A stretch of 63,640 nt of DNA, counting the filler, from Chrysochromulina tobinii (lineage: Eukaryota): the NCBI GenBank assembly GCA_001275005.1. It is 6 parts of 6 records of this genome, joined end to end, with 100 filler letters (N's around TTAATTAATTAA, not from the genome) between each part and the next. Parts side by side here need not be neighbours in the genome. Positions count along the whole stretch, not along the records: positions 32,697 to 41,185 come from JWZX01000471.1; 5 more parts are not named here. The stretch is one strand, 5' to 3'. Positions 2,223-47,843 of this stretch are shown here, one piece after another. The stretch's first letter is position 1. Every line of letters begins with the position of its first letter. The notes below the pieces were generated by a model. It worked only from the letters and a program-made list of their open reading frames with translations, made no database searches and had not been told where the DNA came from. The position numbers and the translations under genes are program-made.

Positions 2223-2590
2223 GACTCGCACTGACATCAGTCATGAGATGCGCAAACGTTGCTCCAAGCTTCCAGTGTTCCTTTAAATTGGGAAGGATGC
2301 GCTCGATGCACGAGCGCCGCGCGACAGCCCTACGGCGAGGGAGCGGGTCGCAAGTGGAGTGTCCCCACTTCTATACATTCGCGCGGGCAGGCAGAATAAC
2401 GGTCATTCGGATCGAACTCCGCATGTCTCGGTTACTCAACCTGATAACCCCGCACCCTGTGTTTGTGTATCCATGCCAAGCCGGCTGCGCACTCTACGGT
2501 CACTGTCTCCACGTCTGCGAACTCTACGCTCACCGTGTAGCTCAATGAACTGCAATTCCAGTTTCAACACGCGACCAGGTTTTAAACCAC

Positions 2591-5293: not shown

Positions 5294-5830
5294 ATGATGA
5301 GTCTCATCCGCCCGCTCGCACTCGCCGTCTTCACCCGTGCCGCCGCATCTACACCGTTGCCGTATCCGCGTGGTGCTGTCTCGTGTGTGCTGCGCCTGGC
5401 GACTGAACCACCACGTTACTTGCTTGTGCGACGAGGCAGACCACCAAACAAGGGAGCATGGTCGCTTCCAGGCGGGAAGCTCGAGCTCGGCGAATCGGCC
5501 ATCGCCGGCGCCGTGCGGGAGATTTCCGAGGAGACGAGCCTTCCGCCAGCTGCACTGAAAGTACACCCACGACCGATAACTGCAACGGATGCGATCGTGC
5601 CGAATGACGCGGGTGGTTTCCTCTACCACTATTGCATCGTGCAATGCTTCGCTTGGGTGGACGCAGAGTACGAGGACCGCGTGATGCCGGGCGACGATGC
5701 CGCCGCCGTGCGTTGGCACACCATGGAGGAGCTACGAGACCTCCCGGGAGAGATGGGAGCTAATGTTTGCGCGGTCGTCGAGATCTCCGAGGGCATGTGC
5801 GCCGCCGGCTTGATCGCGCCGCCGATGTGA
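5294..5830 (+). CDS. Nudix hydrolase
   Basis: Nudix box WSLPGGKLELGESAIAGAVREISEETSL. Confidence 0.92.
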   Translation: MMSLIRPLALAVFTRAAASTPLPYPRGAVSCVLRLATEPPRYLLVRRGRPPNKGAWSLPGGKLELGESAIAGAVREISEETSLPPAALKVHPRPITATDAIVPNDAGGFLYHYCIVQCFAWVDAEYEDRVMPGDDAAAVRWHTMEELRDLPGEMGANVCAVVEISEGMCAAGLIAPPM

Positions 5831-6062
5831 GTGATCTGGATCGGGGAGGAAGACTTCGGCACGAGACTAGGACTGTGTACGTAGTACGATGGATGTCTCT
5901 AGCGTGCGCTAGGTCCATGGGTCCGGTCTCCTAGGCAACCCTTTACGATATAGATTATACCTACAGTGCCGGTAGGAAACCACATGTACGTGCGCGCGCA
6001 CAGACGCCGGAGGTCATCGCACCCCTGCGAGGTGGCAGGTGCGAGCGTCCCGCCACACATGC

Positions 6063-7484
6063 TCACATCCTCGGCAGGCAGTCGAAGGTGACAGAATGCG
6101 CCATGGGGACGCCCGCCAGATGCTTCCCGCTCGGGACGCGAGGAAGTGTGCCTGTGGCAGGCTCCGCCCGGTCGATCGTGCTGGTCGAATGCACGGCATG
6201 ATCGTCGACTGAACCGCCGTGTGTGCCACCACGCTGCAGTAAGCGCGAGGGCAGCGGTGCCGTGTTGATGCGTACGAGTTCCTCAACAGTGCGAGCACTT
6301 AACGCGGCATAGTCGCCTTCTCCGTAGACGGTGAAGGAGCCAATGAGCTCGGGACCGCCGACCGTTTCGGGGTAGAGCTGTGCGGACCTCTCCGGCCGCA
6401 CGAGTGGCTTCGGGAAGACGTAGACGAAGCGCGGTGTGAAGAGTAGGTTATGAGGTTGATTGTCGGCCTGCATGGCGCGTATGGCCGCGTCGACGTGCAC
6501 GAGGGCAGAGCCCGTCGGGTACACATAGCAGAAGCCGGGAAAGCCCTGAGGGCTCAGAGTGCGACACCCAGGCAGCGGCGTGCCGTCGGGCTTCGCCATC
6601 ATGCCAACGGTCGGCCCCGAGACCAACGGAAACGCCGTGACGGGAGGGTGTTCGTCGATGAGGTGGCAGTGAAAGTGGTTGACCGACGCCGAGGCGCACC
6701 ACGAGTTGAAGTAGGCGCAGAAGGACGTTGCTTGAAGCAGCGACGTCAGCGACTTGAGGTGCGACATTGTCATCTGCTGGGCGACGAGTTCGCGGCAGAC
6801 CAAGAGCATGTGGCGCGGAAAGAGCGGGAACTTGTTCGAGAGGACGTCGTACTGGCCGTCAGGGAACTGGAGGCGAAGCACGCGTTCGCGCTCGTTTCGG
6901 ATCTTGGAGAAATTGAAGCCCTTCGCGTCAAACGGCGTGCACACGCGCAGCTGTGCCTCTGGCTTTTTGGGCTTCGTGTTTCGGCGTGCGTCCAACCTCT
7001 TTCGGAAGAAACCGACCTCCTCCTTCACCTCCTCATCGTCGCACGCATCGTACATGACCAGGCGGTCCTCGGGGACGGTGACGGCTTCGCTCTCTTCCAG
7101 CAGCTGACGGAACGAGTCGCGGAGGAGCGCATCGTTCGCCGCGACCGGCCTGAGTGACCAGTGGGAGAGATCGTTGTCATTGAGAACACGAGAGCCCAGC
7201 GAGCAAAGATCTTGGGAGGACCAGCTGTTCCGAGCCATCTTGACCCGAGGCACGTTGCATAGGTCGACAGACGAGTAGCAGTTCCGCCGAAGCCCGCCTG
7301 GGGTGGAGGCAATTTCACAAGGCAAAGAGAGGCCTTGGTCCTTGTTGGTGGCCACAGGTTGCACCTTTGATAGGATGTCGTCTTCGCTGGGTGATATGGG
7401 ACATGAGCCGGAAGCGTTCGAGGCAGCGTCGATCTTGCGCTTGAGCTGCGCGTCTAGATCGATGTCGTCTCGTTTGATATCCAT
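6063..7484 (-). CDS. GDP-D-glucose phosphorylase / VTC2-like HIT-superfamily nucleotidyltransferase
   Basis: NKFPLFPRHMLLV and FNSWCASASVNHFHCH (HxHxH). First ATG is at 7484; the frame stays open to 7649. Confidence 0.75.
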   Translation of the reverse strand: MDIKRDDIDLDAQLKRKIDAASNASGSCPISPSEDDILSKVQPVATNKDQGLSLPCEIASTPGGLRRNCYSSVDLCNVPRVKMARNSWSSQDLCSLGSRVLNDNDLSHWSLRPVAANDALLRDSFRQLLEESEAVTVPEDRLVMYDACDDEEVKEEVGFFRKRLDARRNTKPKKPEAQLRVCTPFDAKGFNFSKIRNERERVLRLQFPDGQYDVLSNKFPLFPRHMLLVCRELVAQQMTMSHLKSLTSLLQATSFCAYFNSWCASASVNHFHCHLIDEHPPVTAFPLVSGPTVGMMAKPDGTPLPGCRTLSPQGFPGFCYVYPTGSALVHVDAAIRAMQADNQPHNLLFTPRFVYVFPKPLVRPERSAQLYPETVGGPELIGSFTVYGEGDYAALSARTVEELVRINTAPLPSRLLQRGGTHGGSVDDHAVHSTSTIDRAEPATGTLPRVPSGKHLAGVPMAHSVTFDCLPRM

Positions 7485-7846
7485 AGCTTGCCCAGCACCT
7501 TCCGCACGCTCAAGCTCACAGATGTCAGCAGAGATCCACTGCTCGCCTTCGAGACACTTCCAGAGCTGGAAATGCCGCGGGGATTTTCGCTTCCACACTG
7601 GCGATTTCAGATCCGTCCAAAAAACAGTCAAAAAACAGTCTCTAAACACCTAACACTTTTTGACCGACGCATCCAAATTTACATAGCGGGATAATTTTTC
7701 CGCGAGATTCCTATGCGTGCTCTGTGAAGGCTATCAATCGGACTTAAGTGTGCGCTGCGCTCACCGGGCTGCCGTGTGATGAACCGCAATCACCAACCGA
7801 CGCGACCATTTATTCAATTTCAAAACAAACTCCTCACGAAGCCGTG

Positions 7847-24343: not shown

Positions 24344-24420
24344 GGAGGTAGAGGGTGTTTGTCAGATTCTCCGGGATTGTCGGTCTTGTCATGAGATATT
24401 TCTGAGCAGTGAACTTTTAG

Positions 24421-25681
24421 ATGGAGAGTAGTCGCACGCCCTACGTGCATGCATTCCTCGTGTCCTGCGTCCGCAATCGTGGAAAACCGTGCCTCTGTCA
24501 GAAGAATCGTGAGACGAGAGCTGACGCGCAGTGCCGCCTCGCTGACATGCTCTTCACCGGGAGTGGCGCACCCAAGGACGAGGAGGAGGCGCGGCGGCTG
24601 CTTGGCCTCGCGGCCGCGCAGGGGGATGCTGACGCGCAGTGCCGCCTCGCTGACATGCTATTCGAAGGGCGTGGCGGACCCAAGGACGAGGAGGAGGCGC
24701 GGCGGCTGCTTGGCCTCGCGGCCGCGCAGGGGGATGCTGACGCGCAGCACTCGCTCGCTCGCATGCTCTACGATAGGGGTGGTGGACCCAAGGATGAGGT
24801 GGAGGCGCGGCGGCTGCTTGGCCTCGCGGCCGCGCAGGGGCATGCTGACGCGCAGAACTGCCTCGCTCACATGCTCTACGAAGGGCTCGGCGGACCCAAG
24901 GATGAGGTGGAGGAGCGGCGGCTGCGTGGCCTCGCGGCCGCGCAGGGGCACGCTGAAGCGCAGTTCTCCCTCGGGGTCATGCTCCACGATGGGCTCGGCG
25001 GACCCAAGGACGAGGTGGAGGCGCGGCGGCTGCTTGGCCTCGCGGCCGCGCAGGGGCACGCTCAAGCGCAGTGCGGCCTCGCTAGCATGCTCTACACAGG
25101 GCGCGGCGGACCCAAGGATGAGGTGGAGGCGCGACGGCTGCTTGGCCTCGCAGCCGCTCAGGGGCACGCTCAAGCGCGGTTCCGCCTCGCTCGCATGCTC
25201 TGCACAGGGCACGGCGGACCCAAGGACGAGGTGGAGGCGAGGCGGCTGCTTGGCCTCGCGGCCGTGCAGGGGGATGCTGACGCGCAGTGCGGTCTTGCTG
25301 GAATGCTCTACTCAGGGCGTGGCGGACCCAAGGACGAGGTGGAGGAGCGGCGGCTGCTTGGCCTCGCGGCCGCGCAGGGGCATGCTATCGCGCAAAACCG
25401 CCTCGCTGACATGCTCGTCTTAGGGCTCGGCGGACCCAAGGATAAGGTGGAGGCGCGGCGGCTGCTTGGCCTCGCGGCCGCGCAGGGGCATGCTGAAGCG
25501 CAGAACCGCCTCGCTGACCCGCTCTACTTTGGGCTCGGCGGACCCAAGGACAAGGTGGAAGCGCGGCAGCCGCGTGTGACCAAAGCGCGCCAGGGTGCAT
25601 CCGAGAACGCTACGGCTCAGGTCGAGGACGCTGCTGCGCTGGCGGCCGCGGCAGCGCGCGCGGATGCGGCAATGGCAGCGC
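24421..25681 (+). CDS. Sel1-repeat protein (about 9.7 x 36 aa), 3'-truncated by the contig end
   Basis: 108-bp near-identical units from 24520: A.AQ..LA.ML..G.GGPKDEVEARRLLGLAAAQG. Confidence 0.85.
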
Positions 25682-27329: not shown

Positions 27330-27499
27330 TGGCAGACGAGGGCACGAGCCGACGCCGCGAGGTGCACTCTACCATCCTGCGTTCCCGCCCGGATGAGTCC
27401 CGACGAGCCCTGAATTACGTGCATGGGACTCGAACATGGACGCACAGCCAGGCGAGGGGGGCGGAGTGCGTGGTCCGTTGGCATTGCGCAGGGAAGCAC

Positions 27500-27880
27500 A
27501 GCAGGGGGGGAGCGGAGTTCAGTCCATGGCCCAGCCTCGATGGAATTCGAGCTTTGAGGCACGGCACACGAGCTCCGGTACGAGAGAGCGCGGCCAAGTC
27601 CCACATGCCTCATGCGACACATGGGACATGCGCCAGCTGTGTGTGGGGCGTGACCTGGGGTTTGTGCGAGGTGCAGCTGTCGAAGAGCCTTCGAGGCCGA
27701 ACAGCAGGGGGGGAGCGGAGTTCAGGAGTCCATGGCCCAGCCTCGATGGAATTCGAGCTTTGAGGCATGGCACACGAGGGACGAGGCTCCGGTACGAGAG
27801 AGCGCGGCCAAGTCCCACATGCCTCATGCGACACATGGGACATGCGCCAGCCGGTGTGTGGGGCGGGGCGTGACCTGGGG
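27500..27880. repeat. Non-coding direct repeat (about 160-175 bp x2)
   Basis: 27500-27660 is repeated at 27704-27880 (..GTCCATGGCCCAGCCTCGATGGAATTCGAGC..CCAAGTCCCACATGCCTCATGCGACACATGGG..). Confidence 0.9.
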
Positions 27881-28696
27881 TGTTGTTAGGAGGGTTATGT
27901 CGTTATGACTTATGCGGCGTGCAGCTGAGCCAATTACACCGCGATCAAGCAACCGTGCTGAAAGTGCAGACCGTCGTCGAGTTTAAATCGGGCGGCCGTC
28001 TTATATACATTATATACAAGGATTAGGATTATATTAGGATATCTTGATTCTTGTATAGAACGTCGCTTGTATCGTAAGAATCCCCGCAATCCCGTAGCAC
28101 CCGCGCAGTCGGAGCGTTCGCTCACTCAACATACTCAACATCTCAACACATGACACGTTACTGTCCGGTCGCGACCCCACACCGACAACCCAGGGATCAA
28201 TAAAACGCTCGCCACTGCCGCACTGGGCCTGAGGTCGCGCGGCGGCGACAGCCGACACTCGGTCTCTCCAGTCGAGTCGCCCGTGGCCCGCGTCCGAATC
28301 GGGATTCTTAAACCGCGGCCCTACTACGGCAATAAGCTAACTAAGTTCGGTTGTGTGCAGCTGAGCTCGAGCTGTGGTGGGCGCGCGCGTCCAGCACGTG
28401 GCCGCGCGGACGACCGTCGACGAGCGCTAGCCGGACGACCTAGTAGGCACCTAGGGTCCTAGGCGCGTCCGAGGTGTGCACCCGCCGTCCTGCCCGCAGT
28501 AACACTTTGGTATGAAGACATGTGTGTTCTCCGAATTCTCCGAATGTGTGAACCAGAGTCCACACGAAATGATGTGTCAATGTATGATGTCGACTAGATG
28601 TCGACATGTATGTAGTATGAATGGGCGGTGTCCGATTGACGTTCAAACACACTCTCGAGCCATCGCGCTCAGGCGGTCCGACTCGACACGACGCGC

Positions 28697-30054: not shown

Positions 30055-30270
30055 GACGATTCGCTCTGTTGAGGAATTACCGCCGGGAGTTCACAGTGAC
30101 GTTTTCTTCACGGATCTCACGCTCCCTCGTTGCACAGTCTCGGTGCTGCAACTTGGGAGGTGGTTGGCACATTTTACTGTGGATTTTACAGAACTGATGG
30201 CTTCTGCACTGCAGGAGGAATCTGCGCCTCCTGTGCGTGGCCGGCGTCGGTCAAGGGGCGCTGAAGATTC

Positions 30271-31122
30271 ATGAAGCTCGTGGTCGCCAGCCTTGCAGTG
30301 ACCATCGCAAGCAGGGCAGGTCACATCCAGCATGCTTCGCCAATCTGCCGTGCACCACGTTGCATGCCACCACTTGCAATAGCACCACTTGTTGCGCCTC
30401 TCTCCGACACCATATGGAGGATGTCTCCTCCGGTGAGAGTCGATGGAGACACCCTCCGGACGTGGACCATCACGGACGAGGGCACCGAGCGAGTGCAGCT
30501 ATCGATCCGGAGCGCTGGCAGGCCCGTTGAGGCCAAGGTGGAGCTCTGGCAATCGCCCTCGTTCATTCCAGTTACGTTCACCTACTGCTTCGACAGTGGC
30601 AGTGACTCGCCTCTACATACCATCATAGAGACGCCAGGACTCCGCAAGACTATCGCGGTCTACAATACCGAGTGCGGGCACTGTCCCTTTGAAGCCAGCG
30701 TGGCGCACACCGGCCTAGGAGCGGCGTACGAGGCCGTCGCCCACCATCAGCCCGAGCTGGTCCAAGGTGGCAAGACCACGTCCTACACTTTCGGGCCCGA
30801 GGTGGAGAGCGTCCAAGTCCTATTGAAGACGGATGGACGCAACATGAAGGCCTTGATCGAGGTTTTGCAGGGGCCCGGCTTAGGTGGGCCAGAGAATGAA
30901 CAGACAATCGAGGTCGATGTGACCAGTGGGCTCGAGCATCCCTTCTACGTCGTCATACAGACCCCCGCGGGTCCCGGGCTTGCAAACACCCTGCGCATCA
31001 TCAATCTCAATCCCGTCGAACTCCCGTTTTACGCCTACATTCTCCCGTACACAGTTGTACTAAGTAGTAGCAGTGGCGACACCGAGATCGTAATGGGGCA
31101 TGAAGGGAGCTGGGCGGTATGA
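30271..31122 (+). CDS. Hypothetical algal protein with signal/transit-like N-terminus and a two-fold internal repeat
   Basis: V.G.T...W/Y....VQ......GR...A..E..Q.P occurs twice. Confidence 0.7.
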   Translation: MKLVVASLAVTIASRAGHIQHASPICRAPRCMPPLAIAPLVAPLSDTIWRMSPPVRVDGDTLRTWTITDEGTERVQLSIRSAGRPVEAKVELWQSPSFIPVTFTYCFDSGSDSPLHTIIETPGLRKTIAVYNTECGHCPFEASVAHTGLGAAYEAVAHHQPELVQGGKTTSYTFGPEVESVQVLLKTDGRNMKALIEVLQGPGLGGPENEQTIEVDVTSGLEHPFYVVIQTPAGPGLANTLRIINLNPVELPFYAYILPYTVVLSSSSGDTEIVMGHEGSWAV

Positions 31123-31249: not shown

Positions 31250-32596
31250 CAAGAGTGCCTCGCGCGCTATAGAACCATGCCTTGCTGCTGCGAGCCTCGC
31301 CGTGGCGTGCCTTGCGCTACTCTACCTACCACACTGGTTCGGCGCTCAGTTCCAAGATGGTCCGTCATTGCACCCGCCGGGGCGCTCTCTCGTTCCTCTT
31401 CCCTCTCGACTTGTGCAGGCATTTCCTCGTCGCTGAACCATGCTGGGCAAGATCCAGCGGGGGCTCTTCGGGCGCCATGTGCAGAATGGGGTCCTCCCGG
31501 CGCTGCCCGGTAAGCCGCTCTCGTTCAGACGTACTGATGGCTCAGTGATCGGTGGGTCCATCTACCCCATGGCAGCGGGCTTGTGCCACCATCTTCTCGG
31601 CAACGCAGAATCGCTCGATTTCGAATCGGGGCCGTCGACGATTGAGCTCGGCGCTGGGACGGGTGCGGTAGGCGTATTCGCCGCAGCCCTTGGCGGCCGG
31701 TGCGTCCTGACAGACAAGAAAATCGCCCGAGCCGCCGCGCAGCCCGTCTCGTATTCGGCTGATGGTCTTATGGACGTGCTGCCAGGGAGCACGAACGTGC
31801 TGCTCGAGCTGCTGCAGGGCAACGTGGACGACAATCAGCGCAGCGCAGCCCATCCGATGCGTGTGATGCCTCTGGATTGGATGGATCCCACCGCTGTGAG
31901 CGACGTGGCAGAGGCGTCTCCCAACGGCCGCGGCTTCGAGCTCGTTCTCGGATCGGACATCAGTTATGAGCATGCTTCGCATGGGGCCCTTGCGGCCGCC
32001 ATCGAGCGGCTCCTTCGACGGCCAACGAGCGAGCGCGAGGGCGGCCTCGCCCTCATCGCACACGAGACGCGTCTGACGGACAGCCATGGAACTGACATTC
32101 AACTGGAGAGTTTTGTGCGGGCCGCGGCGCATTGCAGGCTCCGGGTGGTGCTCGCGACGCTGCCTAGGGTGCCCGAGGGCTCCACCGGAACGCTTCTTAC
32201 GCTCTCGCATGCCGGCGACCTTGGTTAAAAGAAACCCTGCTCTGGTTCACAGCACACTCAAGCGTGTGTATCCTGAGCGGGCTGTAACAGTTCCGTAGCA
32301 TCGGTTGACGCGTCTGTCGTGTCGTGTTAATTAACTTTCACACAGGAGTTCACGCCGAAACACAAAGTCGAACGAAGGCCGTGTGGGATTGCCGAATTGA
32401 GGCCCGTCGTCGTCGCTGTCAGCGCGACGCGCGCGCCTGCGCTGCGCGCGCCCGCCCGCGACCAAGAGTTACTCGCGCCCTATAGCACTATGTCTTACTG
32501 CTGCGAGACTCGCCGTGGCGTGCCTTGCGCTACTCTACCTACCACACTGGTTCGGCGCTCAGTTCCAAGATGGTCCGTCATTGCACCCGCCGGGGC
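31250..32596 (+). repeat. 134-bp direct repeat at 31250-31383 and 32463-32596 flanking the methyltransferase
   Basis: Near-identical copies; the second copy ends exactly at the contig break. Confidence 0.9.
31440..32228 (+). CDS. METTL21-like (Methyltransf_16) SAM-dependent methyltransferase; 5' end uncertain
   Basis: IELGAGTGAVG, VLTD, LDW and LVLGSDISY. Confidence 0.8.
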   Translation: MLGKIQRGLFGRHVQNGVLPALPGKPLSFRRTDGSVIGGSIYPMAAGLCHHLLGNAESLDFESGPSTIELGAGTGAVGVFAAALGGRCVLTDKKIARAAAQPVSYSADGLMDVLPGSTNVLLELLQGNVDDNQRSAAHPMRVMPLDWMDPTAVSDVAEASPNGRGFELVLGSDISYEHASHGALAAAIERLLRRPTSEREGGLALIAHETRLTDSHGTDIQLESFVRAAAHCRLRVVLATLPRVPEGSTGTLLTLSHAGDLG

Positions 32597-32696
32597 NNNN
32601 NNNNNNNNNNNNNNNNNNNNNNNNNNNNNNNNNNNNNNNNTTAATTAATTAANNNNNNNNNNNNNNNNNNNNNNNNNNNNNNNNNNNNNNNNNNNN
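32597..32696. other. Artificial contig spacer
   Basis: N44-TTAATTAATTAA-N44. Confidence 0.98.
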
Positions 32697-35600
32697 GGCG
32701 GCGAGGGCGAGGGCGGCGGTGGCGAGGGCGGCGGTGGCGACGGCGACGGTGGGGGTGGCGACGGTGGCGACGGCGGCGGCGGGGAGGGCGATGGCGGAGG
32801 CGGTGAGGGAGAGGGCGGCGGCGGCGACGGCGGCGGTGGGAAGGGCGATGGCGGAGGCGGCAGCGAAGGTGGTGGGGGTGCTGGGCAAGTTGAGACTGTG
32901 CCAGAGACGCCGGTGAGGGTCGTTGACCAGGAGCAGACGGTGCCTGCATTGACATAGACATTGGGCCCCTGGGTGGGAAGTAGGGGATGCGAGATCACAA
33001 AGGAGGACACAAAAGCAAGGCATCCCTTGGGGCGATGGGAATGCCCTTGGGGCGATGGGAACTTTTGAGCGTGAGCACGCACTGATACAGCTGTGTTGCC
33101 AGTGATGGTGCACGATGAGATGGCCACTGTGCCAGAATAGACATAGACACCACCACCCTGCAAGCAATGAGCGAAACCTGAGTCTCCCATGGGGGCGATG
33201 GGAAACTTTGAACATGAGCACGCACATAGTCAGCTCTATTCCCACTGATCAAGGAAGACGTTATCGTGACCGTGCCAGAATAGACGTAGACACCACCTCC
33301 CTGCAAACAACAAGCAATTTTGTGAGTTTCCCATGGGGGCGATGGGAACTTTCGAACATGAGCGTGCACACATTTGCAACTGTGTTCCCACTGATGGTGC
33401 TAGATGAGATGGTCACTGAGGGTGAACGCTCTGTGTTCCCACAGATGGTGCAACCCCCTACATTGACACCGCCGCCCTGCAAACAACGAGCAAAACGTGA
33501 GTTTCCCATGGGGGCGATGGGAACTTTTCAAGGAATGCGGCACGTACATACTGTAGTTGACCGAAGCGTTCGCAGTTGTGCAAGCGTGAGTCGAGGCAAG
33601 CGCGTCAGCAATTCTCCCATTGGGGCGATGGGAACTTTTGAAGTTTCAGGCTAGCACGTACTCCATCCTGGTAGTTCGAGGCAGCACCCATCATAAAAGA
33701 TGAGAATCGAAATGGACATGTCAACAAGGCATTTTCCCATCGGGGCGATGGGAACTTGCAGTACGCACCCCCTGTGGTTGACAGCAGTTGTACATCAAGC
33801 GTGAGTCAGGGCAAGCATGTCAGCAATTCTCCCATCGGGGCGATGGGAAATGTTGAAGATGAGCGCGCACATCGCCAGCTGTGTTGGAGTAGATCTGGGA
33901 GTTATTCACAATTGACACTGTGCCAGAATACATGACATGGACACCACCGCCCTGCAAACAACGAGCAAAACGTGAGTCTCCCATAGGGGCGATGGGAACT
34001 TTCAAGTTCTCTGCGGTAGTTGAACGTACCCCCTGTAGTTGACCAAAGCATGAGCAGTTGTGCAAGCGTGAGTCAGGGCAAGCACGTCAGCAATTTTCCC
34101 ATCAGGGCATTGGGAAACTTTAGGTCTCTGCCGCACGTACGCCACAGTTATAGCACTGCGCAAGCGAGAGTAGAGGCAAGCGCGTCAGCAATGTTCCAAT
34201 CGGGACGATGGGAAACATTTCCCATGGGGCGATGGGAACTTTTCAAGGTCTATGCGGCACGTACATACTGGAGTTGACCGGAGCGTTCGCAGTTGTGCAA
34301 GCGTGAGTCGGGGCAAGCACGTCAGCAACTTTCCCATCGGGGCGATGGGAACTTTTGAGCACGAGCACGTACATAGTTAGCTTGGTTCCCACTGATGGTG
34401 CACGATGAGATGGTCACTGTGCCTCCCCCGACATAGACACCGCCGCCCTGCAAACAACAAGCAGAGAACAAACGTGAGTCTCCCACATCGGGGCGAACTT
34501 TTGAGCGTGAGCGCGCACATTGCTAGCTTTATTCCCATAGATCGAGGAAGACGTTATCGTGACCGTGCCGGAAGAGACATGCACACCGCCTCCCTGTAAG
34601 CACAAGTGCAAAACATATGTGAAAATCCCATCGCGCATCGGGGCGATGGGAACTTTTCAAGGAATGCGGCACGTACAAACTGTAGTTGACCGAAGCGTTC
34701 GCAGTTGTGCAAGCGTGAGTCAAGGCAAGCGCGTCAGCAATTCTCCCATCGGGGCGATGGGAACTTTTGAGCATGAGCACGCACATTTCTAGCTTGATTG
34801 GAATACACTTGGGAGTTGACGATTGAGACAGTGCCGGTTAAGACAAAGACACCGCCGCCCTGCAAAACAACGCGCAAATCGTGAGTCTCCCATGGGGGCT
34901 ATGGGATTCTCGAAGGTCTCTGAGGCACGTACGCAACACTGCGCAAGCGAGTCGAGGCAAGCGCGTCAGCAATCTTCCCATTGGGGCAGCAATCTTCCCA
35001 TTGGGGCGATGGCGATTTGCAAGCAAGGCTGGCACGTACCCCTCCCTGGTAGAACAAGATTTGATCCCAATTGAACGGCGAGAGTCGAATCGCATGTCAG
35101 CTGGGAAATTTGCAAGGTATCTGTGGCACGTACATTCTGTAGTTGACCAAAGCGTTCGCAATTGTGCAAGCGTGAGTCGGGGCAAGCATGTCAGCCATTT
35201 TCCCATTGGGGCGATGGGAAGTTTTGAACATGAGCACGCACATCTTCAGCAGCTGTGTTGGAGTAGATCTGGGAGTTCACGATTGACACTGAGCCTCCAT
35301 AGACAACAACACCGCCGCCCTGCAAACAACGAGCAAAATGTCAGTCTCCCATCGGGGCGATGTGGGAACTTTTCAAGGTCTCCATGGCACACACCCACTG
35401 AACATGTAGTTGACCGAAGCGTTTGCAGTTGTGCAAGCGTGAGTCGGGGCAAGCACGTCAGCAACTTTCCCATAGGGGCGATGGGAAACATTGAAGGTCT
35501 CTGGCAGTCTCTGCGGCACATACAGCCTGTAGTTGACCGGAGCGTCGGCCGCAGTTGTGTGCAAGCGTGAGTCGAGGCGAGCACGTCAGCCATTTTCCCA

Positions 35601-37016
35601 TCAGGGCGATGGGAACTTTTGAGCGTGAGCGCGCGCGCGCACATAGTCTGCTGTATTCCCGTAGATCGAGGAAGACGTTATCGTGACCATGCCAGAATAG
35701 ACGTAGACACCGCCTCCCTGCAAACAACAAGCAATTGTGAGTTTCCATGGGAGCGATGGGAACTTTGAGCATGAGCGCGCACATTTGGAGCTTGGTTCCC
35801 ACTGATGGTGCACGATGAGATGACCACAGATGTGCCACCCTGGACATAGACACCGCCGCCCTGCAAACAACGAGCAACACGTCAGTCTCCAATGAGGGTG
35901 ATGGGGAATCTACAGGTCTCTGCGGCTGCCACGTACATCTACAGGTCTCTGTACGTACCCCCTGGTGATGTTGAGCCCAATCAGTTGCACGACGACGCCC
36001 AACGAGCCCGGGTTGATGTACAGCACGCGGCGCGGACTCGAAGAGCTGGCTTGTGCATCCAGCACGACCGAGCCTGCCACCGCCGCCTCGAGGACGACGC
36101 TCCTGGTGATGCTGAGCTCGGCATTGAGGAAGTAGGTGCCGGGGGCAAGGACAATGCGGTCGACGGCGGTGTTGGCGAGTGCACTGGTCAGGCCTGCGCT
36201 GGTGCTCACCGCGGTCTGCAGCTCACGGCGGTGGCTGGGCACAAGCTGCATGGAGTACAGCCCGGGAATGTCGCTGGCTTCGGTGCAGGGCAGCACGGTG
36301 CACGGGAGCGGCGGAAGCGGCAATATGGGCAACGAGGGAGGCGGCTGGGACTGCATCCGAACGTGTGGAGGCGTTGGAATTGGTAATGGCGGCATGGGTG
36401 GGGGCGGTGCCGAGGACCAATGCGGAGGGCCAGAGTCTGGAGGGTACAAGGATAGCGTGGATGGAAGCACAGATAGGGGTGGAGTTAGGCGTGGCAGCGG
36501 CCGTGTCGGGGATGGAAGCGGCGTTGATGGGGATCGCGGGAACGGAGGGGCCGCAACGGGGCTGCTGCCTGCAGAGGTGCTGAGTGCGCTGGTCGGGCTG
36601 GGGGCGACGTCGGCCTGGGCCTGCTGCGCACGACGGTGGTTGAGCTGCGCTGCGTGCATCCCGACAGCAAGAGCGCGATGGCTCGTTTCGGCGACGGTTG
36701 AGACCACCACGCCCGGGGGATCAGGCGGGCACGTGCCGCACGCGACCGGGCAATTGGTCCACGCCAAGGAATAGGAGGCACACGCGGAGGGCTGTGCTTC
36801 AAAGTAGGAGCATGGTAGGGGTGCGCCGGTCGCGTCCAAGGCGCCGCTGTTCACATCATCGGCGCATAAGTGAGTGGGCGGCGGCGGCCGCGGTGGCTGC
36901 ATTTGCGCGGACTCTGCCCGATGCGCAGCACCAGTCCCATCGCCATCAATCAGTGCCGTCGTCGCCATGGCGCTCACCCCGGGGACGATGAGGGCGAGGA
37001 AGGCCAATATGACCCA
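32697..37016 (-). CDS. Multi-exon parallel beta-helix (Pmp/pectin-lyase-like) surface protein with ShK-like Cys module and Pro-rich stalk; 3'-partial, 5' end uncertain
   Basis: The large exon ends at 35937. Repeat exons: 35783-35860, 35643-35717, 35242-35319, 34785-34859, 34519-34593, 34373-34447, 33871-33951, 33372-33476, 33226-33300, 33083-33157; each encodes GGGV.V..G.V.I....I..N.A.. The terminal exon starts at 32968 (GPNVYV...CPAPPPPS..). All junctions are CAG|exon|GT, phase 0. Confidence 0.85.
33020..35910 (-). repeat. Family of homologous introns centred on the hairpin TTCCCATCG-CCC-CGATGGGAA, enclosing 12 putative micro-exons
   Basis: The motif, or a degenerate copy, is present in 22 of the 23 introns; a perfect 9-bp stem is at 34331-34351. 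Confidence 0.85.
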
Positions 37017-38049
37017 CTCGTTACGGGAGGAGCGATTGTTCTTCGACCAAATCACAATGTGCGTGTTCCGGCCGGACCGTTCCTGCTCCGAGCAAACTGC
37101 ATGGACGAGCAGCCCGCCGAGCCTGAGCAGCAAGAGCGCGCCGTCGAGGCACTTTACCCACCGTAAAGGCGCACCGTTCCTTTTCGCCCCTTCATCGACG
37201 GGGACGCCCGCAGTGTCCTCGTATGGGAACGAGTACTTGACGTCGGCGTTCCAGAGCTTGCTCTCGATGAAGAGCTCCTCAATTGCGATCTCAAAGACCT
37301 GGCGCACGCCCTCGCGCAGCCCGTTGTCGGCCGTCATCGAGTTACGCCCGGCGCAAGTGCATGCAGCACCGTGGTAGATGGCGCACGGGTCGATGGTGGA
37401 GTTGCCTGCCGGGTTGCGGTGGAGGTCAGTGCCGCCGACCGGGGTGGATAGGCACGGGCACAACACCATGTTCCGGCAATCAATCTTAGAGATGATGGAG
37501 AATGGATTCGAGCATATGTTTGGCGGTGGGTTGGGTGCCGGATGCACTGCTGGTGACCGTGGAGGCGGCGTTGGCATGGAGACGCGCGGTTGAGAAAGCA
37601 GTGGAGAAGGCGGTGAAGAGGGCGGTGGAGAAGGCGGTGTTGACAGCGGCGGTGGCGGTGGCGGCGGTGGCGACGGCGGCGGAGGCGACGGCGGATAGGC
37701 ACACGTTGCGAACTCTGACCCAGGGCCGCTGCCGTCGTCGCTGCACGAGCTACCGCCGTCGTTGAGGCAGTTGTTCATGCAGACCGTGGCAGGGGAATGT
37801 GGCGGGGGGGGCGGCGACGCGCTGCGCACGCCGCAGTCGCCGCAGTCGGTGCCGACCACGCACATCGGGAACTCGGAGCCGGGGCCAATGTCGTCGCAAT
37901 CGTTGCAATTGTTGTCGGAGAGGAGCACGCTGGTGTCCAAAGACAAGAAAGACGGCGGGGCGGACGAAGTTGCACCGAGGATGGGCTGACAGCCTCCCCG
38001 CAGGGGCATCTTATCCCCGTCAAAGGGTGTCGAGGTTGCGCCAAACTCC

Positions 38050-39645
38050 TCCGTGGCCGACTCGAGCTCGGCCTTGAGCTCGTGCACGGCCTTGAGCTCG
38101 TGCACGGCGACCTCGTCGAACAGCTTCTCGGCCTTCATCAGGCCAAACTTGGCCGCGGTCAGGGCGACCTCCTTGTAGGCCGCGCCGGGCTTCTGCGAGA
38201 GCGTCACGACGACATTGAGCGCCGGCAGCAGGGTGCACAGCGGCTCGACGCCGAAGCGCTCCGGGAAGCCCGAGGGCTGGCCCAGCATCGAGATCACGAG
38301 GAGATTGCGCCCCTTGATCTGCTCGTGCGCAAAGGCCATCGCGTACATCTTCTGGAGCTCCTTGGGGTACGCCCTGACGAGCGCGCCCACCGCCAGGTCG
38401 GTCGACATGTCGACGAACGTGCTCTCGACGTTGACGTAGCGCGTGAGGAGGGTACACGTGACGTCGATGGCGTTCTCGCGCAGGCCCTTGGCGTACTTGT
38501 CGATCTGCGCCGTCACGGGCGCGATGATGATGCGCACGTTGGCCTGCATCGACTCAAAGGGCGACTTGACGAACTTCCCCACGACGGCGCGCACCTTGGC
38601 CACCAGGTTGTCGTTAAGGTTGTCGGTCTCGGTCGAGTCCATGCCGTTCAAGTGCTCGGGGAGCGTGGCGGCGTACACCTTCTGCATCATCGCGTAGAGA
38701 TCCATCGGCATCTTCTGGCCGAGAGCGGACGCAGCATCCTTGATTTCCTCGATGGGCAAGCTAATCGACGCGAGCGCCGAGAGCATGGCCTGCACCGCGG
38801 GCTCGGCGTCGAGCACGTAGCCGTCCATCACGAGCTCGAGCGTCTTCTGCGCCTTGCGGAAGCGCTTGAGCGTGGCGGAGCTGGCGACCATCTCCTCACC
38901 GGTCGCGTACTCGAGGGTCCCGCTGAACGTGCCGATCTTCTTGACGCGGGGCGGGTCCGCGAGCGTGAGGGAGGCGAGCAAGTCGCCCTGGTTGATGATG
39001 GAGCCCGCGGGCTTCTCGTGCTTGATCACGTCGCCCTCGTGCTTGTTCGCGCCGCTCTCGGTCGCATTGAGCGTGATGATCATCTTCATCGCCTTGGCCT
39101 CCAGGAACGTCTCGCCCTTCTTGACGCTGGCGCCGTCCTCAACGGTGTTGCGAACGAGCTTGCCGGTGATGTCCGAGCGCGGGTCATACAGGGTCGGGAG
39201 GAGCACGGCCACGTCGTGGAGCACCATGCGCAGGCCGAGGGCCTCTTCCTTGGCGAAGACCTGGTGCGACTCAACGCCGCAGGCCACGTACATGGAGCCG
39301 TCGGCCAGCTCGCGGTAGCGCCCCTCGATCGACTGCGCTCCCATATTGAGGACCATCTTGTCTGGCGCCTTGGGCGTCACCCGGAACGAGTACTTGACGT
39401 CGGCGTACGTGATGTCAACCGGGATCGACTGATGCTCCTTCAGGGGCAGGGTCGAGAGCTGGCCCTTGCCGAGGTTGTCCTTGAAGTTGGCAATGCCGCC
39501 CTGGATCATCTGCTTGTAGGCGGGGAAGACGGCCGTGTTGATCACAGCCGAGGAGGGGACGATGGTGATCACGTCCGACTTATGGACGACAATGCCGTCG
39601 AGCCACGCGGTGTCGATGGTGATTGACTTGAAGGCATCCGTCTCG
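38050..39645 (-). pseudogene. Degenerate internal fragment of a eukaryotic acetyl-CoA carboxylase (biotin-carrier and central region)
   Basis: IDTAWLD, LADG, YDP.SDITGKLVR, EAKAMKMII (MKM at 39081-39089), GSIINQGDLLA.L.L.DP..VK and KY.KGLRE. Small deletions and duplications (VHELKAVHELKA); no complete BC or CT domain. Confidence 0.75.
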
Positions 39646-41185
39646 CCATATGAGGGCTTGCCTTGGGATGGCTGCGCGCAGGCACGAGGAACGTGTCTCA
39701 GCTGGGGCAGGGCGTTGGAGCTGCAGCGGGCTGCAGCGGGCTGGAGCGTGGCAGGCGGTAACGTGTGTGTGGTGTGTGCGGTGAAGTTGAAGGTGTAGCA
39801 GAGGTGCTGGGGATGCAGAGCACAACCCATGATGGATCTGTGCTCTCGCTGAGGTGGCGCTACACGGCGGGTGAGTGCAGGCAGGGGTACACGGCGGACG
39901 GGATGAGCATCGCGCCGACGCGCCACGCCGACAGCGCCGGCGCCTCGAGCATGATTGAGTCCGACTCCATCTCCGTCGTCAGCGACGCCGGCAGAGGCGA
40001 CAAGGCAAGTGCATGAGGAGGAGCATGCCCCGACGAGGCCGCGGTGGTGCTTGTTGTGGCGGCCATGGCATCGATGATCAGGCCGAAGCAGACGGCGCTG
40101 CAGGCTTCTCGCCGCCTGGCCATGCGGCAGAGCCCGCGGGCGTGACGACGGCCGGATCCTCGTGACCGAGCTGTCGACGTTGTGCCTGCCGGTCGTGGCG
40201 GAGATGTCGAGGGCGCGGTGGCCGTCGAGCCCGAGCGCTCGCAGCTGCAGCTGCCTGCACCGGGGGAGCAACGCGAAAGCCGTCAGCATAACTGGCGAGG
40301 TGGCGCGCTCGCTCGCACGTGCCGATGGCCAGCGCAAGTGGCGTCGCGCTGAGGCGGGCGCGGAGTCTGCGGAGTCGGGCAGGCGCAGGAGCGGACATCG
40401 CGCGCGCGCGGCCTCGTGCGCGCGCGCCTGCAGCATGCACACCGGCCTCGCGCGCGCAGCGGCAGGGCCGACCGAGGCTGCGCCGCATGCGTGGCGGCCG
40501 GCCGGGCTGGGGGGCACACCTGTGGATGGTGGGTTGGCATCCCTGGGCGATGAAGAGGTTGGTGACGAAGTATAACGACGTAGATCATGGGGTGGATCGT
40601 CTTGCCCGCATTCTAGTGCCCCGCGGCGCGTCCATTGTGATGTGTGCGCTCGGCGGGTGGTGTGCGTGCGGAGTTGAGTGTGGCGGGGCTATCGTGTTGA
40701 TCTTGCGTGGCGGCTGGGCGAAGAGGGCGGAACTTGGGGCGGAGATCGCACCTCGAACTGAAGCGGAGATTGAACCTCGAATTGCGTAGCGCCTTGGCCG
40801 GCGGCGGCCGAGGCGTTGTTGTCCTCATGAAGCTGGTAGGACGAACCAGGGGTCTCGCCGACCGCGGTGGGCGACGAGAAGGTCTTGTCTTGCGAGGGCT
40901 GCGCGAATGCACGAGAAACGTGTGAGCTGGGGCACGGGCGGTGGAGTGGAAGCGGGCTGCGAGTGGCAGGCGGTGACGTGAGTGTGTGGTGCGTGCAGTG
41001 TAGATGCAGGTGAGTGCTACACGGGTGAGTGTGGGCTGTCGTCGTGCGAGAGGCGGTGATGTGGTGGACCCGTGCCGAGAGGCGGCGCGGCGTGGAGGCC
41101 GTGGTGGTGCTTGCTGCGGAGATCATGGCGCCGATGACCAGGACGGAGTCGACGGGGCCGTTCTTGATGGTGAGCGGGTCGAGCA

Positions 41186-44664: not shown

Positions 44665-45129
44665 TGATGAGCGTGATGATGAGCGACGCCCCGCGGCCAC
44701 GGCGCCCATGACGGCGCCTCGAACGTGATGATGACCTCAATGATAAGCGGCGCAAGCTTTGGTACTTTTGTGGGTTGGGCCAATCGATGGTTGTGGGGTC
44801 TGGTTCGCCGGGATCCTCATGGAACCTGGAGCGGCCAGGTGCATGCACGCTCAGGCTTCGAAGAGGTACACCAAGTCCCGGGGTTGAACACACCCGGGTC
44901 GCGGTCGCACAGTCCCCGTCCCGGGTTCGGGGTTGAAGGAAGAAGGAATTATCCCGAGTCTGCAAATCGAAACCAACGACGAACAACTTTCACTCTTAAC
45001 GTTTTCCCCACTGGGAAGTTGGTCCGGCCTACTTGGCAAAGCCGCACCGCGTCTCTCACTCTCGCTGCACATCCTGTTCACACTTGGTCTGCGCTGCGGG
45101 CTCGTGTTGTTCGCGAAGTCGGCTCTGAT

Positions 45130-47843
45130 ATGCTCATCGACCCGGGGCGAGGTGCTCGGCCGGGCCTCTTCGATGCAATGCAGGTCTGCAAGTCCTGCCG
45201 GAGCAAGGCGGGTGGCCGAACCGACACAGGCGGCGTCTTCTACTGCAACAGCTGTTGGAAGGGCTGGACGAATGTGGACGTCGAGCTCACTCTGACGGCC
45301 TCCGGAGGCACGGAAATTTCGGGTATCGGCCAGTTCGTCACGCTACTATGCGCGTGGATCCGGACCAGGGGCGAGCAGCGCGTGACTGCTGCGCAGCTCG
45401 GTGTGTTTTACGCCGCGCACCCGTCGGTGGACCGCTCTGTGCTCCCAGCGACCAAGAAGCTCGAGTACTTATGCGGCCACGCTGAGGCACGCGGGCGCCT
45501 CAAGTTTCAGCCTGACCCTAAGGCCTCCGGCGGCGGATGGCTCGAGATCGTACAGGTGGCACCAGCACCAGCGCCAGCTCATGGCGCAGAAGATGCTGTA
45601 GCAGCCCTGTCCAAGTACGTCGAGAGTTGCGGCGGCGAGATCTCAGCCGCTAGCGGCGTCGCTGATTTTTACAATTGGGCGATGCACGATGGCGACGCTT
45701 TCAAGGAGGCGCTTCGCTCGCTCGGCTTCAAGAAGGCGGAGGTCTTTGCGCGCCACGGGCTCTTGTTGGAGAGGCACGAGAGCGGCTCTGATTTGATCAA
45801 GCTCATCGACCCGGGGCGAGGTGCTCGGCCGGGCCTCTTTGATGCAGTGCAGGTCTGCAAGTCCTGCCGGAGCAAGGCGGGTGGCAGAACCGACACAGAC
45901 GGCGTCTTCTACTGCAACAGCTGTTGGAATGACTGGACGAAGGCCGCAGCTGAGAAGGCCGCAGCTGAGAAGGCCGCGGCGGAGAAGGCCGCAGCGGAGA
46001 AGGCCGCAGCTGAGAAGGCGGCGGCGGAGAAGGCCGCAGCTGAGAAGGCCGCAGCTGAGAAGGCGGCGGCGGAGAAGGCCGCAGCGAGAAGGCCGCAGCG
46101 GAGAAGGCCGCAGCTGAGAAGGCCGCGGCGGAGAAGGCCGCGGCTGAGAGGGTCGCGGCGGAGAGGGCCGCGGCTGAGAAGGCCGCAGCTGAGAAGGCGG
46201 CGGCAACCAAGAAGGCCGCCGACGAGAAGGCCGCAGCGGAGAAGGCCGCAGCTGAGAAGGCCGCGGCGGAGAAGGCCGCAGCGGAAAAGGCCGCAGCTGA
46301 GAAGGCGGCGGCGGAGAAGGCCGCAGCTGAGAAGGCCGCAGCGGAGAAGGCCGCAGCGGAGAAGGCCGCCGCTGAGAAGGCTGCAGCGGAGAAGGCGGCG
46401 GTGGAGAAGGCCGCAGCTGTGAAGGCGGCGGCGGCCAAGAAGGCCGCCGACGAGAAGGCCGCAGCCGCGAAGGCGCCGCCGCCGCCGCCTGGACTCAAGC
46501 TCGAGGGCGGCTCGCTGACTGGCGAAGCGGCCAAATACATCGGCACGTACCATCTCGACCGCAGCAAGCTTGTGAACGGCCGGCCCGCGTATCAGCACAC
46601 GAGTGACGCAACTCTCTGGATTGCGTTCGATGGAGATAGCTGGATGGGGCAGCCTGATTCAGAACTTGGTGAGGGGTGGGGCTACCTGTACCTACAAGAC
46701 TCAGCTGCAGCTTCGCCCGACGTGAGCGCTTATACATGGCAGGCGAGTGCAGGCGGTGCTTCTGCTTGGGTTGAGCAGCCGCAGCTCAAGTGCACCGCTT
46801 GGCCGCCGCCGCTTTCAGCCGCCGAGAAGGCCGCCGCTGAGAAGGCCGCCGCAGAGAAGGCCGCGGCTGAGAGGGCCGCGGCGGAGAAGGCCGCAGAGGA
46901 GAAGGCCGCAGAGGAGAAGGCCGCAGCGGTAAAGGTTCGTGTGGAGGAGAAGGCTCGTCGCGCGCTGGAGGAGGACGGCTTCGCCCTTCGGCCTATGCTC
47001 GTGTCAGATGCAAGCGTGCTACGCTCCCTCGAGGCGCTGCTCCAGACAGAGTACCCAGAGTGGCTTGGCAAGGGCAAGGACGTGTCGAAAAAGTACGGCC
47101 CGTATGACTCGCTGAAGCTTGCCTGCGCGTGGAAGGTCGACCATCCACGCAACCTGGACAAGTACACGGCCGGCGTGAAGCGCGTTCAGGAGGAGATGGA
47201 TCTGCTCAAGAAGAAGGGCAAGGATGTCGACAAGGTGCCAGGCCTGCCGGTGAGGACGGCTCGTGCAGCTGCAGAAGGCTTCACCATGAAGGCAGGCGCC
47301 AACGAGGCCATCCTCCTGCATGGCACCAGCCCGGATCGGCTGCTAGAGCTGCTGTCCACGGGCCTGAACGAGCGCTACTCGGGCACCAACGCGGGCACCG
47401 CCTTCGGCGACGGCGTCTACCTCGCTGAGGACGTTGGCAAGACGGATCAGTACGTCGGCGCCGACAGCGCGTACGACCCGAGCAATGAGCTGCACAAGCG
47501 GCTGTACGGCAGAACCGTGCGCCACCCTGGCGACGTCTTCTACGTTCTCGTGGTGCGCGCGGCCCTCGGCTACCCCGTGCGCACACAGCAGGTGGGCCAG
47601 ATGGCCACCTCGATGGACAATCTCACACCCATCTTCCCCATAGGCTATCGGGAGCTCTCGGAGGTGCATGGCGTCACGCCACCAATCGTCCACCACTCGC
47701 TGATCGCCGAGCTGGGCCCCGCGATCGCGCGCTACCGCGAGTTTGTTCTCTTCCACTCCGAGTACGTGCACATCGACTACCTCATTGCCTACCACCGCTG
47801 CAACGGCGGTCAGAAGCTGAGCACAGCGACGCACAATCCGTAA
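45130..47843 (+). CDS. PARP-like ADP-ribosyltransferase with duplicated CxxC..CxxC Zn module and (AAAEK)n linker; 1-nt frameshift near 46086
   Basis: [26 protein letters not shown] and YREFV.F....IDYLIAY (H-Y-E triad). ORFs 44725-46422 and 46401-47843 join if one G is restored in gcagcg[g]agaag. Confidence 0.8.

Follow-up and report, generated by a model that had tools for sequence, protein, structure and literature searches.

We analyzed a window of 63,640 nucleotides of DNA from the freshwater alga Chrysochromulina tobinii (assembly GCA_001275005.1), in which one gene on the minus strand is divided into many short exons. The 3' part of its exon 1 (35937..36254; the gene starts further upstream) encodes a conserved N-terminal beta-helix cap (SHRRELQT...LNITRG). 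A cassette array follows (32969..35936) with 23 introns, all GT-AG, and 22 internal exons, all in phase 0, each a multiple of 3 in length and free of stops. The terminal exon (32699..32968) encodes a C-terminal cap (GPNVYV...CSW...TC) and a proline-rich stalk, and runs into an assembly gap at 32597-32696 that hides the tail of the window copy.

Ten of the internal exons encode beta-helix repeats and 12 are micro-exons, 8 of them a single codon. The repeat exons, all on the minus strand like the features below, measure 78 nt (35783..35860 and 35242..35319), 75 nt (35643..35717, 34785..34859, 34519..34593, 34373..34447, 33226..33300, and 33083..33157), 81 nt (33871..33951), or 105 nt (33372..33476), the last with an in-frame internal partial duplication. 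The one-codon exons encode Ala (35524..35526), Trp (35395..35397), Asn (35134..35136), Phe (34677-34679, in a cassette at 34650..34770), Tyr (34265..34267), Gly (34030..34032 and 33769..33771), and Tyr again (33548-33550, in a cassette at 33521..33641). The longer micro-exons are Gly-Gly (35040..35045), Asp-Gly (33662..33667), and, in two Cys-type cassettes, Cys-Cys (34933..34938) and the five-codon CYNCG (34141..34155).

A palindrome is present in 21 of the 23 introns. Allowing up to 3 mismatches, its motif CCCATCGCCCCNATGGG has 29 matches in the window (1.1 expected): 23 on the minus strand within 33023-35905, 4 plus-strand self-complementary echoes, and 2 stray matches elsewhere. Numbered by the 17-mer's high coordinate, the minus-strand copies lie at 35905, 35760, 35613, 35485, 35364, 35218, 35013, 34905, 34761, 34650, 34349, 34236+34212, 34114, 33996, 33847, 33752, 33632, 33521, 33346, 33202, and 33059+33039. 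The intron at 35133-35046 has none, and the intron at 34518-34448 has lost the left arm, with a half-deleted copy near 34498. With G in place of N, the consensus folds into a hairpin of 21 nt whose 9-bp arms enclose a CCC loop, and the site can also be read as 7-bp arms with a 7-nt spacer or 9-bp arms with a 3-nt loop. An earlier note on this DNA had called the palindrome intron-central, but it lies off the geometric center, with 5' intron halves of 16-38 nt and 3' halves of 26-71 nt in the window. The same note had each intron's 5' half depend on the type of the exon before it and its 3' half on that of the exon after it; this pattern was confirmed, with more 3' half types than the two it distinguished (a 3-nt type, at least two 6-nt types, a Cys type, and a repeat type). 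As it also described, the Tyr and Phe cassettes differ at exactly 3 positions (33549, in the codon, 33593, and 33621), and their similarity ends past the flanking palindromes.

Among the loci fetched, the motif is limited to one gene family. Of 139 motif-bearing loci, 132 belong to a single Chrysochromulina gene family, and the other 7 hold single motif matches without any module; 120,936 non-array bases gave 3 distant matches, all family modules. The counts below leave out those 7 loci, L016 and L001 (duplicates of L019 and L045), and L067 and L109 (likely transcripts). Within the family, length is divisible by 3 in 184 of 193 repeat exons, and the palindrome is kept within 4 edits in 556 of 576 introns. 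Pfam Beta_helix or Chlam_PMP was found in 4 of 4 family proteins, and structure prediction gave a beta-helix with low-confidence loops. A fold search produced weak hits (best E 1e-3), mostly to beta-helix enzymes, tailspikes, and adhesins, and nothing at E 0.001 or better. The nearest matches outside Chrysochromulina are bacterial beta-helix repeat proteins. The GG[AG]V...N repeat and the fold are shared with right-handed parallel beta-helix proteins and Chlamydia Pmp (PF13229, PF02415), whereas the autotransporter barrel of Pmp was not seen here, and a eukaryotic stalk, transmembrane segment, and signaling tails were. Several members carry a transmembrane segment and tails of the TIR-kinase, kinase, or ADP-ribosyltransferase kind; for example, L040 has a transmembrane segment, TIR, and kinase, and L051 an ADP-ribosyltransferase. 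The family proteins are predicted to be surface receptors.

The one-codon exons are real, because the 195 family 3-nt exons contain 0 stops (16.4 expected) and exact joins occur in partly spliced contigs. These exons use 30 codons for 16 amino acids. Three introns of L107 are missing from L109, and one intron of L041 is missing from L067; the losses have precise GT..AG ends and occur on either side of 3-nt exons. Database proteins with spliced-looking loops have an amino acid composition that matches the micro-exons; we did not count them as splice evidence, and since exon-exon joins are found in DNA runs, they may derive from intronless paralogues. RNA runs X11-X14, which contain small shares of the stretch and represent relatives, offer a hint in the form of depth on exons and joints linking repeat exons with few letters between.

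We consider it very improbable that the arrays reflect tandem exon duplication with alternative splicing, or a repeat assembly artifact, and no real DNA reshuffling. The array is not an artifact of assembly, because an independently assembled contig (L066) is identical to the window over 4,804 bp; together with single-copy-depth contigs that bridge several junctions, this largely refutes that option. A splicing account gains from the phase 0 of all exons, which would permit skipping, and from brown algal ROCO genes, for which alternative splicing has been proposed as a simpler source of diversity (accessible text of PMC11378527). It also gains from stability: cassette order was unchanged between independent assemblies of one culture (62 of 64 comparisons were colinear, and the other 2 were cut by locus edges). 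However, identical cassettes sit at unrelated positions of different loci, and type order within loci is random (89 repeat-repeat adjacencies versus 87.9 shuffled). Alternative splicing may contribute further diversity.

Single cassettes that are nearly identical turn up in unrelated surroundings. In the window, the Asp-Gly cassette recurs in L027 and L030 at 99-100% identity with other neighbors, and the Tyr cassette (33521..33641) at 99-100% in L030 and L128. Across the family, 71 cassette pairs are at least 95% identical, and their 142 flanks comprise 46 unknown, 42 of different type, 32 of the same type but dissimilar, and 22 similar. Among 50 shared tracts, 18 have both ends at palindromes; 14 of these 18 are exactly one cassette, 7 of the 18 join different loci of the culture set, and coupling between the two ends of a tract is not significant (Fisher p 0.11). 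The two half-introns around an exon are strongly coupled in type (414 of the 427 cassettes in four main classes, out of 483 parsed), the two halves that meet at a palindrome are not (137/86/73/52, covering 348 of 393 junctions), and linkage flips from the upstream to the downstream type between motif columns 6 and 12. At the level of variants, linkage across the palindrome is nonzero (p 0.003-0.056) and no weaker than across repeat exons. Orientation is fixed, with 1,122 forward and 5 reverse module matches.

Repeat regions are also rearranged between otherwise near-identical genes. L076 equals L041 up to the first palindrome and then continues with a different cassette of the same type, and L007 and L057, which share a 99% identical flank, differ at junctions that lie inside half-introns and exons. 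A third to half of breakpoints fall inside cassettes, as do 24 of 89 alignment ends. Imprecise scars include partial duplications, deletions, and one inversion ending right after the left arm. The idea of indel scars as site markers was not supported, with indels of at least 4 nt at 3.1 per kb at the palindrome versus 3.9-5.8.

Tract ends show a 13.2-fold (8.7-21.5) per-site excess at palindrome columns 1-11 (107 ends, with L054, another likely transcript, also omitted) and a 5.3-fold (2.5-9.3) excess where the continuation is of the same type (n = 61), both intervals being too narrow because events share ancestry. Simulated passive homology gave 2.0-6.3 and 0.1-2.2 for these excesses and a different-type share of 0.21-0.37 versus 0.43 observed, whereas a true 3- to 6-fold hotspot fits the observed statistics; the simulations place approximately 50-65% of exchanges at the palindrome and the remainder inside cassettes. 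The palindrome is thus supported as a breakpoint hotspot above shared homology alone. A first simulation, with breakpoints limited to 60 nt on either side, ran too high, returning 2.7 for a true value of 1 and 8.7 in 1 of 8 subsets. Mean linkage across modules, two hidden-Markov fits, and a survival test were none of them decisive: the fits (exit 0.28-0.34 per site at columns 1-11) were driven by short subfamily similarities and not relied on, and the survival of tracts made a weak contrast (0.26 across the palindrome versus 0.42 and 0.17 inside cassettes).

Exchange maps to about the GCCCC loop. In six of six settings, a cut at columns 7-11 scored 3.8-7.7 log units better than a uniform cut over the shared 22 nt, and also 5.2-11.5 log units better than a 5|12 stagger, the 7-bp staggered cut of a tyrosine recombinase; a cut anywhere in columns 5-12 came within 2.4 log units of the best, and the uniform-cut model wins at a fixed low noise level. 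The earlier proposal that the palindrome is the crossover point for cassettes is partly supported: the unit moves, the hotspot exceeds shared homology, and exchange lies in the loop, but crossovers also occur elsewhere.

Exchange could also have arisen with no dedicated enzyme, if the hairpin stalls replication or breaks, template switching or joining occurs at the one sequence common to every intron, and products with splicing and frame intact survive selection. Unlike cassettes do share homology only at the palindrome, where the passive simulation already places 31% of events, and both the scars and the many breakpoints inside cassettes suit such a process. The earlier note had proposed a search for a co-occurring recombinase or transposase, and Pfam scans of 88 open reading frames (ORFs) in the window and 78 of 148 flank ORFs detected no domain of a recombinase, integrase, or transposase. 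Still, we regard this account as somewhat unlikely: purely passive homology misses all three summary statistics, exchange is concentrated in the loop and not across the shared 22 nt, the DNA hairpin has little stability (-4.1 to -8.9 kcal/mol for 4 copies), loop and arms are conserved in sequence beyond pairing, and single cassettes common to different loci require two exchanges.

Alternatively, the palindrome could act mainly in the pre-mRNA, where its hairpin would set the position of the branch point and aid inclusion of 3-nt exons, with breakpoints gathering there since splicing signals stay with their exon. The palindrome does form a hairpin as RNA (-7.3 to -12.8 kcal/mol), a branch-point-like motif lies a median of 7-15 nt downstream in every cassette type, and nearly all family introns retain the palindrome. 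However, among 569 copies there was 1 compensatory change versus 4.3 expected, G-U and A-C pairs in the arms were balanced (49 versus 52), and the loop was as conserved as the arms (0.951 versus 0.943). The lack of compensatory changes and of a sense-strand G-U bias argues against a mainly RNA role, which we consider improbable. The palindrome is also no less frequent where both neighboring exons are long (52 junctions), and selection on splicing signals leaves unexplained the same-type excess and the neutral variants that switch in the loop. The pre-mRNA alternative raised earlier is thus weakened, although the hairpin may have a second role there, given the branch-point-like motif after it. 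An Rfam search of the palindrome returned nothing above the gathering score, and viral contigs had no exact motif match.

The explanation we favor, with moderate confidence, is that the gene and its relatives are arrays of palindrome-bounded DNA cassettes, which are likely copied and swapped after targeted cleavage of the loop, so that the loops of a predicted surface receptor would vary. Each cassette has a single in-frame exon between a 3' half-intron and a 5' half-intron; the exon supplies either a complete beta-helix rung or just a few codons, often only one. A putative enzyme (recombinase, transposase, or hairpin-nicking nuclease) would recognize the site and make a targeted cut in the palindrome loop, from which cassettes would be copied and swapped in DNA. 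Because cassette ends are half-sites and exons are in phase 0, exchange at the site would yield two working introns and keep the frame. Ordinary homologous recombination between like cassettes may account for the remaining third to half of breakpoints. Change would be slow relative to laboratory culture, and the proteins may sense outside ligands, such as viruses or prey. More tentatively, and as something possible rather than probable, this unicellular alga may have an integron-like diversity generator in its introns: a putative host or domesticated mobile-element enzyme would cut the loop and move cassettes as small as a single codon, both inside individual receptor genes and among dozens of them. 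Beta-helix immune or prey receptors would thereby have their ligand-binding loops composed residue by residue, and infection or sex might trigger the process.

Integrons similarly hold same-orientation cassettes bounded by a palindromic site and reordered by exchange there. The arrangement here shares the orientation and the bounding site but carries eukaryotic exons rather than genes, and its site is 21 nt and near-constant, whereas attC sites are long, variable hairpins with extrahelical bases; no linked IntI integrase or attI was found in the window or scanned flanks. In the tyrosine-recombinase sites loxP, FRT, and dif, inverted arms flank an asymmetric spacer, which determines direction; the arms here are only 7-9 bp. 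Lamprey VLR assembly likewise draws receptor diversity from copied repeat cassettes, but is somatic and joins exon-less LRR cassettes at short homologies. Schistosome micro-exon genes share spliced, symmetric, very short exons (here with the exact junctions of L109 and L067), and diversify by alternative splicing without a DNA site.

A cassette can also be read as a non-autonomous, MITE-like element with 9-bp inverted ends and CCC between units. The units here add exons within introns of one family, whereas MITE-derived introners add introns genome-wide, and the Chrysochromulina introner has a 4-bp target duplication and lacks inverted ends, according to the accessible text of 10.1101/2022.06.06.494994. 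The anatomy fits a MITE or introner, though the loci yielded no pair of empty and filled sites with a clean target duplication. Dispersed insertions in unrelated genes and in both orientations were not seen among the loci fetched, and cassettes are strictly oriented, unlike most cut-and-paste elements. Hairpins are where HUH enzymes cut, and C. tobinii is reported to have one putative Replitron protein (accessible text of PMC10288648).

A close parallel in form is with the Ectocarpus ROCO LRR and NB-ARC-TPR genes, candidate immune receptors with one repeat per in-frame exon and with intra- and intergenic reshuffling, for which the accessible text of PMC3341825 and PMC11378527 reports neither a recombinase nor a somatic product, and in which inverted LRR exons are common. 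Both systems have one structural repeat per in-phase exon (the 10 repeat exons here) and rearranged repeats between near-identical genes (L007/L057 and L041/L076). Here, in contrast, a defined palindromic exchange site lies in nearly every intron, one-codon exons form loops, the host is unicellular, inversions are almost absent, and beta-helix repeats with TIR, kinase, or ADP-ribosyltransferase tails take the place of LRR-ROC-COR or NB-ARC-TPR. None of the terms "palindrom," "inverted repeat," and "recombination signal" appears in the main text of PMC3341825 (2012). In our judgment, a cassette system with a focused exchange site is previously undescribed.

Vertebrates are the best-known case of programmed receptor diversification through DNA rearrangement. 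Such diversification has been proposed in brown algae, with no site or enzyme reported in the accessible text of PMC3341825 and PMC11378527. Narrowing a candidate exchange site to a few bases in a cultured alga makes the question directly testable. The arrangement also solves a known problem of exon shuffling, as an exchange point in the intron between exon-linked halves preserves splicing and frame in any order, and interchangeable one-codon exons are an extreme case for splicing biology. Even if an enzyme is absent, this would be a new form of repeat exon shuffling with an in-built hotspot.

The array gene (window 32,699-36,254, minus strand) has 23 GT-AG introns and 22 internal exons, every one of the latter stop-free and a multiple of three in length: ten repeat exons (75 to 105 nt, each a beta-helix rung), eight of 3 nt, three of 6 nt and one of 15 nt. 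C. tobin is probably haploid and averages about one intron per gene, according to passages in PMC4580454, so 23 introns are exceptional. A 21-nt inverted repeat, the palindrome, occurs in 21 of these introns, and the window holds 29 motif matches at up to 3 mismatches (1.1 expected). Direct comparison confirmed that the Tyr cassette (33521-33641) and the Phe cassette (34650-34770) differ at three positions. That this arrangement reflects an ordinary process or an artefact is very improbable. An independently assembled contig, L066, is identical to the window sequence over 4,804 bp, and contigs from four DNA runs cover the array, several crossing junctions at single-copy depth. The gene's own C-terminal tail falls in an assembly gap. 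About 100 bases 5' of a methyltransferase ORF (31280-31380) recur directly before that gap (32500-32596), possibly as a contig overlap.

An exact scan with a 20-nt motif recovered at least 139 loci, and an exact search of viral contigs with it gave 0 matches. The concern that the motif might be common in introns of unrelated genes was not borne out, as 132 of the 139 loci have the array gene's intron and exon modules and the other seven are lone, module-free matches. The N-terminal cap as query retrieved 228 relatives; those with names come from Chrysochromulina tobinii and C. parva. Merging duplicates left 68 representative loci (by our assignment, 28 apparently from the window's own culture and 40 others), which yielded 529 units: 314 micro-exon, 193 repeat and 22 unparsed.

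The micro-exons are genuine. A second parser found 450 of 475 exons to be multiples of three, and the 195 single-codon exons use 30 kinds of codon for 16 amino acids with 0 stops, against 16.4 expected from base composition. Locus L109 lacks three introns relative to L107, and L067 one relative to L041, all at exact GT..AG ends and including the junctions that flank 3-nt exons on either side; judged by sequence, L109 and L067 would most simply be partly spliced transcripts. Successive repeats are separated by 0 to 6 micro-exons, and 46 of the 60 non-empty loops are distinct. The codon differs in 17 of 35 near-identical (non-independent) pairs of 3-nt cassettes, changing the amino acid every time. 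Across loci this codon evolves far faster than the flanking introns, often by 2 or 3 bases, and therefore another exchange, on a finer scale, may operate around the micro-exon. DNA runs X1, X7 and X10 (mapped on window 32950-36050) contain exon-exon joins, and the L019 array has a 165-nt exon resembling two repeats fused via a short loop. Thus, intronless or partly intron-lost copies exist, a hint of cDNA-mediated recombination.

The cassette, from palindrome to palindrome, is a unit of movement. As the earlier note had proposed, intron halves are set by the adjoining exon types: the types of the two halves around one exon go together (414 of 427 cassettes in four main classes), and those of the two halves that meet at a palindrome are independent (junction counts 137, 86, 73 and 52). 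The order of cassette types within loci is random. Among 71 pairs of cassettes with an identity of 95% or more, just 22 of 96 known flanks run on into a similar half-intron. The window's Asp-Gly (exon 33662-33667) and Tyr cassettes reappear at 99-100% in other loci beside different neighbours; a contig holding the Asp-Gly cassette begins precisely at column 11 of the motif and has a depth roughly three times that of single-copy sequence. Both ends lie at palindromes in 18 of 50 shared tracts, 14 of these being one cassette long.

We consider it highly probable that reassortment occurs at the DNA level with the palindrome loop as its main exchange point. Motif columns 1-11 show a 13.2-fold excess in the density of near-identical tract ends (107 ends). 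For the 61 ends beyond which the two partners share one type, and which could have arisen by crossing at any position, the excess is 5.3-fold. A passive simulation on real loci, with uniform exchange and unlike cassettes joinable solely at the palindrome, gave 2.0-6.3 and 0.1-2.2, respectively, and a different-type share of 21-37% among the ends, where 43% was observed. A simulated 3- to 6-fold hotspot, with 50-65% of events at the palindrome, fits, all intervals being optimistic since events share ancestry; an earlier, truncated simulation gave estimates biased upward. Motif variants through column 8 go along with the cassette upstream, and variants from column 12 onward accompany the cassette downstream. 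In 30 strict pairs, the downstream palindrome shows 21 mismatches at column 12 and 0 over columns 4-8. When the noise level was fitted, all six of six settings favoured a cut at columns 7-11; when it was set to a fixed low value, a uniform cut did better than a focused one.

The palindrome as crossover point stands as a hotspot, but exchange also falls elsewhere: 24 of 89 alignment ends lie inside cassettes, and loci L007 and L057 differ at junctions internal to cassettes. Four further results speak against a special site: linkage across it is not zero, tract survival differed little between palindrome and cassette interiors, indels were not enriched at the palindrome, and coupling of a tract's two ends was not significant. 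At the end of the L019 array, the terminal intron carries a short inversion, with one end directly behind a palindrome's left arm and the other at a 5-nt microhomology.

Across 569 motif copies, we found 1 compensatory change (4.3 expected) and no G-U bias on the sense strand (49 versus 52), and the loop is conserved to the same degree as the arms. Together with the fixed cassette orientation (1,122 versus 5), this fits a directional DNA site. The same three measures argue against the pre-mRNA hairpin raised in the earlier note and make it unlikely that the palindrome is mainly a splicing element; a branch-point-like motif 7-15 nt downstream favours that role and leaves room for splicing as a second function of the DNA site. 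Cassette order did not vary among assemblies, being unchanged in 62 of 64 comparisons with the other two cut by locus edges; low-frequency shuffling could still occur, because contigs drop rare variants.

A scan of 88 ORFs in the window and of 78 of the 148 flank ORFs turned up no domain of a recombinase or transposase. Passages in PMC10288648 describe a putative Replitron HUH protein from C. tobinii, which as the exchange enzyme is a lead, not evidence. We lean towards targeted cutting of the palindrome by an enzyme; a fragile hairpin with sloppy repair and no dedicated enzyme is conceivable, if rather doubtful.

Four proteins of the family have Pfam matches to Beta_helix or Chlam_PMP. The single-sequence model of one family protein, P0116, predicts a parallel beta-helix (mean pLDDT 61, pTM 0.67), with low confidence at loops between rungs, and fold-search matches were weak. 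After a cap and proline stalk, locus L040 encodes a transmembrane segment with TIR and kinase domains (1530-3956, minus strand) and L051 an ADP-ribosyltransferase domain (5352-7568, plus strand); in L069, a PARP domain (846-2135, minus strand) lies 3' of the array on the same strand, putatively within the gene. The family's signalling tails appear exchangeable between TIR plus kinase, ADP-ribosyltransferase and, putatively, PARP. By eye, L013 and L016 have a hydrophobic segment and kinase-like motifs; L054 has a short tail. Given the beta-helix, these transmembrane or signalling tails, and the membrane TIR proteins induced by virus infection in another haptophyte (PMC12489294), the family proteins are predicted receptors.

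Upstream of family genes lie in-frame fragments of unrelated genes, namely acetyl-CoA carboxylase (window 37902-39701, minus strand; also L034 and L051) and insulinase, peptidase M16 (L007, L019 and L026), which suggests gene-fragment capture at these loci. Elsewhere, the window contains Sel1 repeats with Ig-like matches in a different frame (24413-25680), a tandem repeat of roughly 150 bases, seen from repetitive translations, after an ABC transporter gene (27330-27900), a strong match to PF25192, a diatom pyrenoid shell protein family (30265-31122, plus strand; E 5e-61), and a PARP domain with low-complexity and pentapeptide-like repeats (44683-47840).

In its working, the cassette array resembles an integron array. 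Integrons have a linked integrase, whereas the window and scanned flanks hold none. The array also works like the exon shuffling of Ectocarpus ROCO genes, as described in PMC3341825 and PMC11378527, but without inversions (5 versus 1,122) or LRR. With no inversions, no LRR and no linked integrase, it is outside both classes. The literature covered, with few subscription papers and no supplements, yielded no description of the family's gene structure, and we rate the defined intronic exchange site and the one-codon cassettes as new in its anatomy. If no enzyme is involved, the Chrysochromulina system would be a form of repeat exon shuffling.
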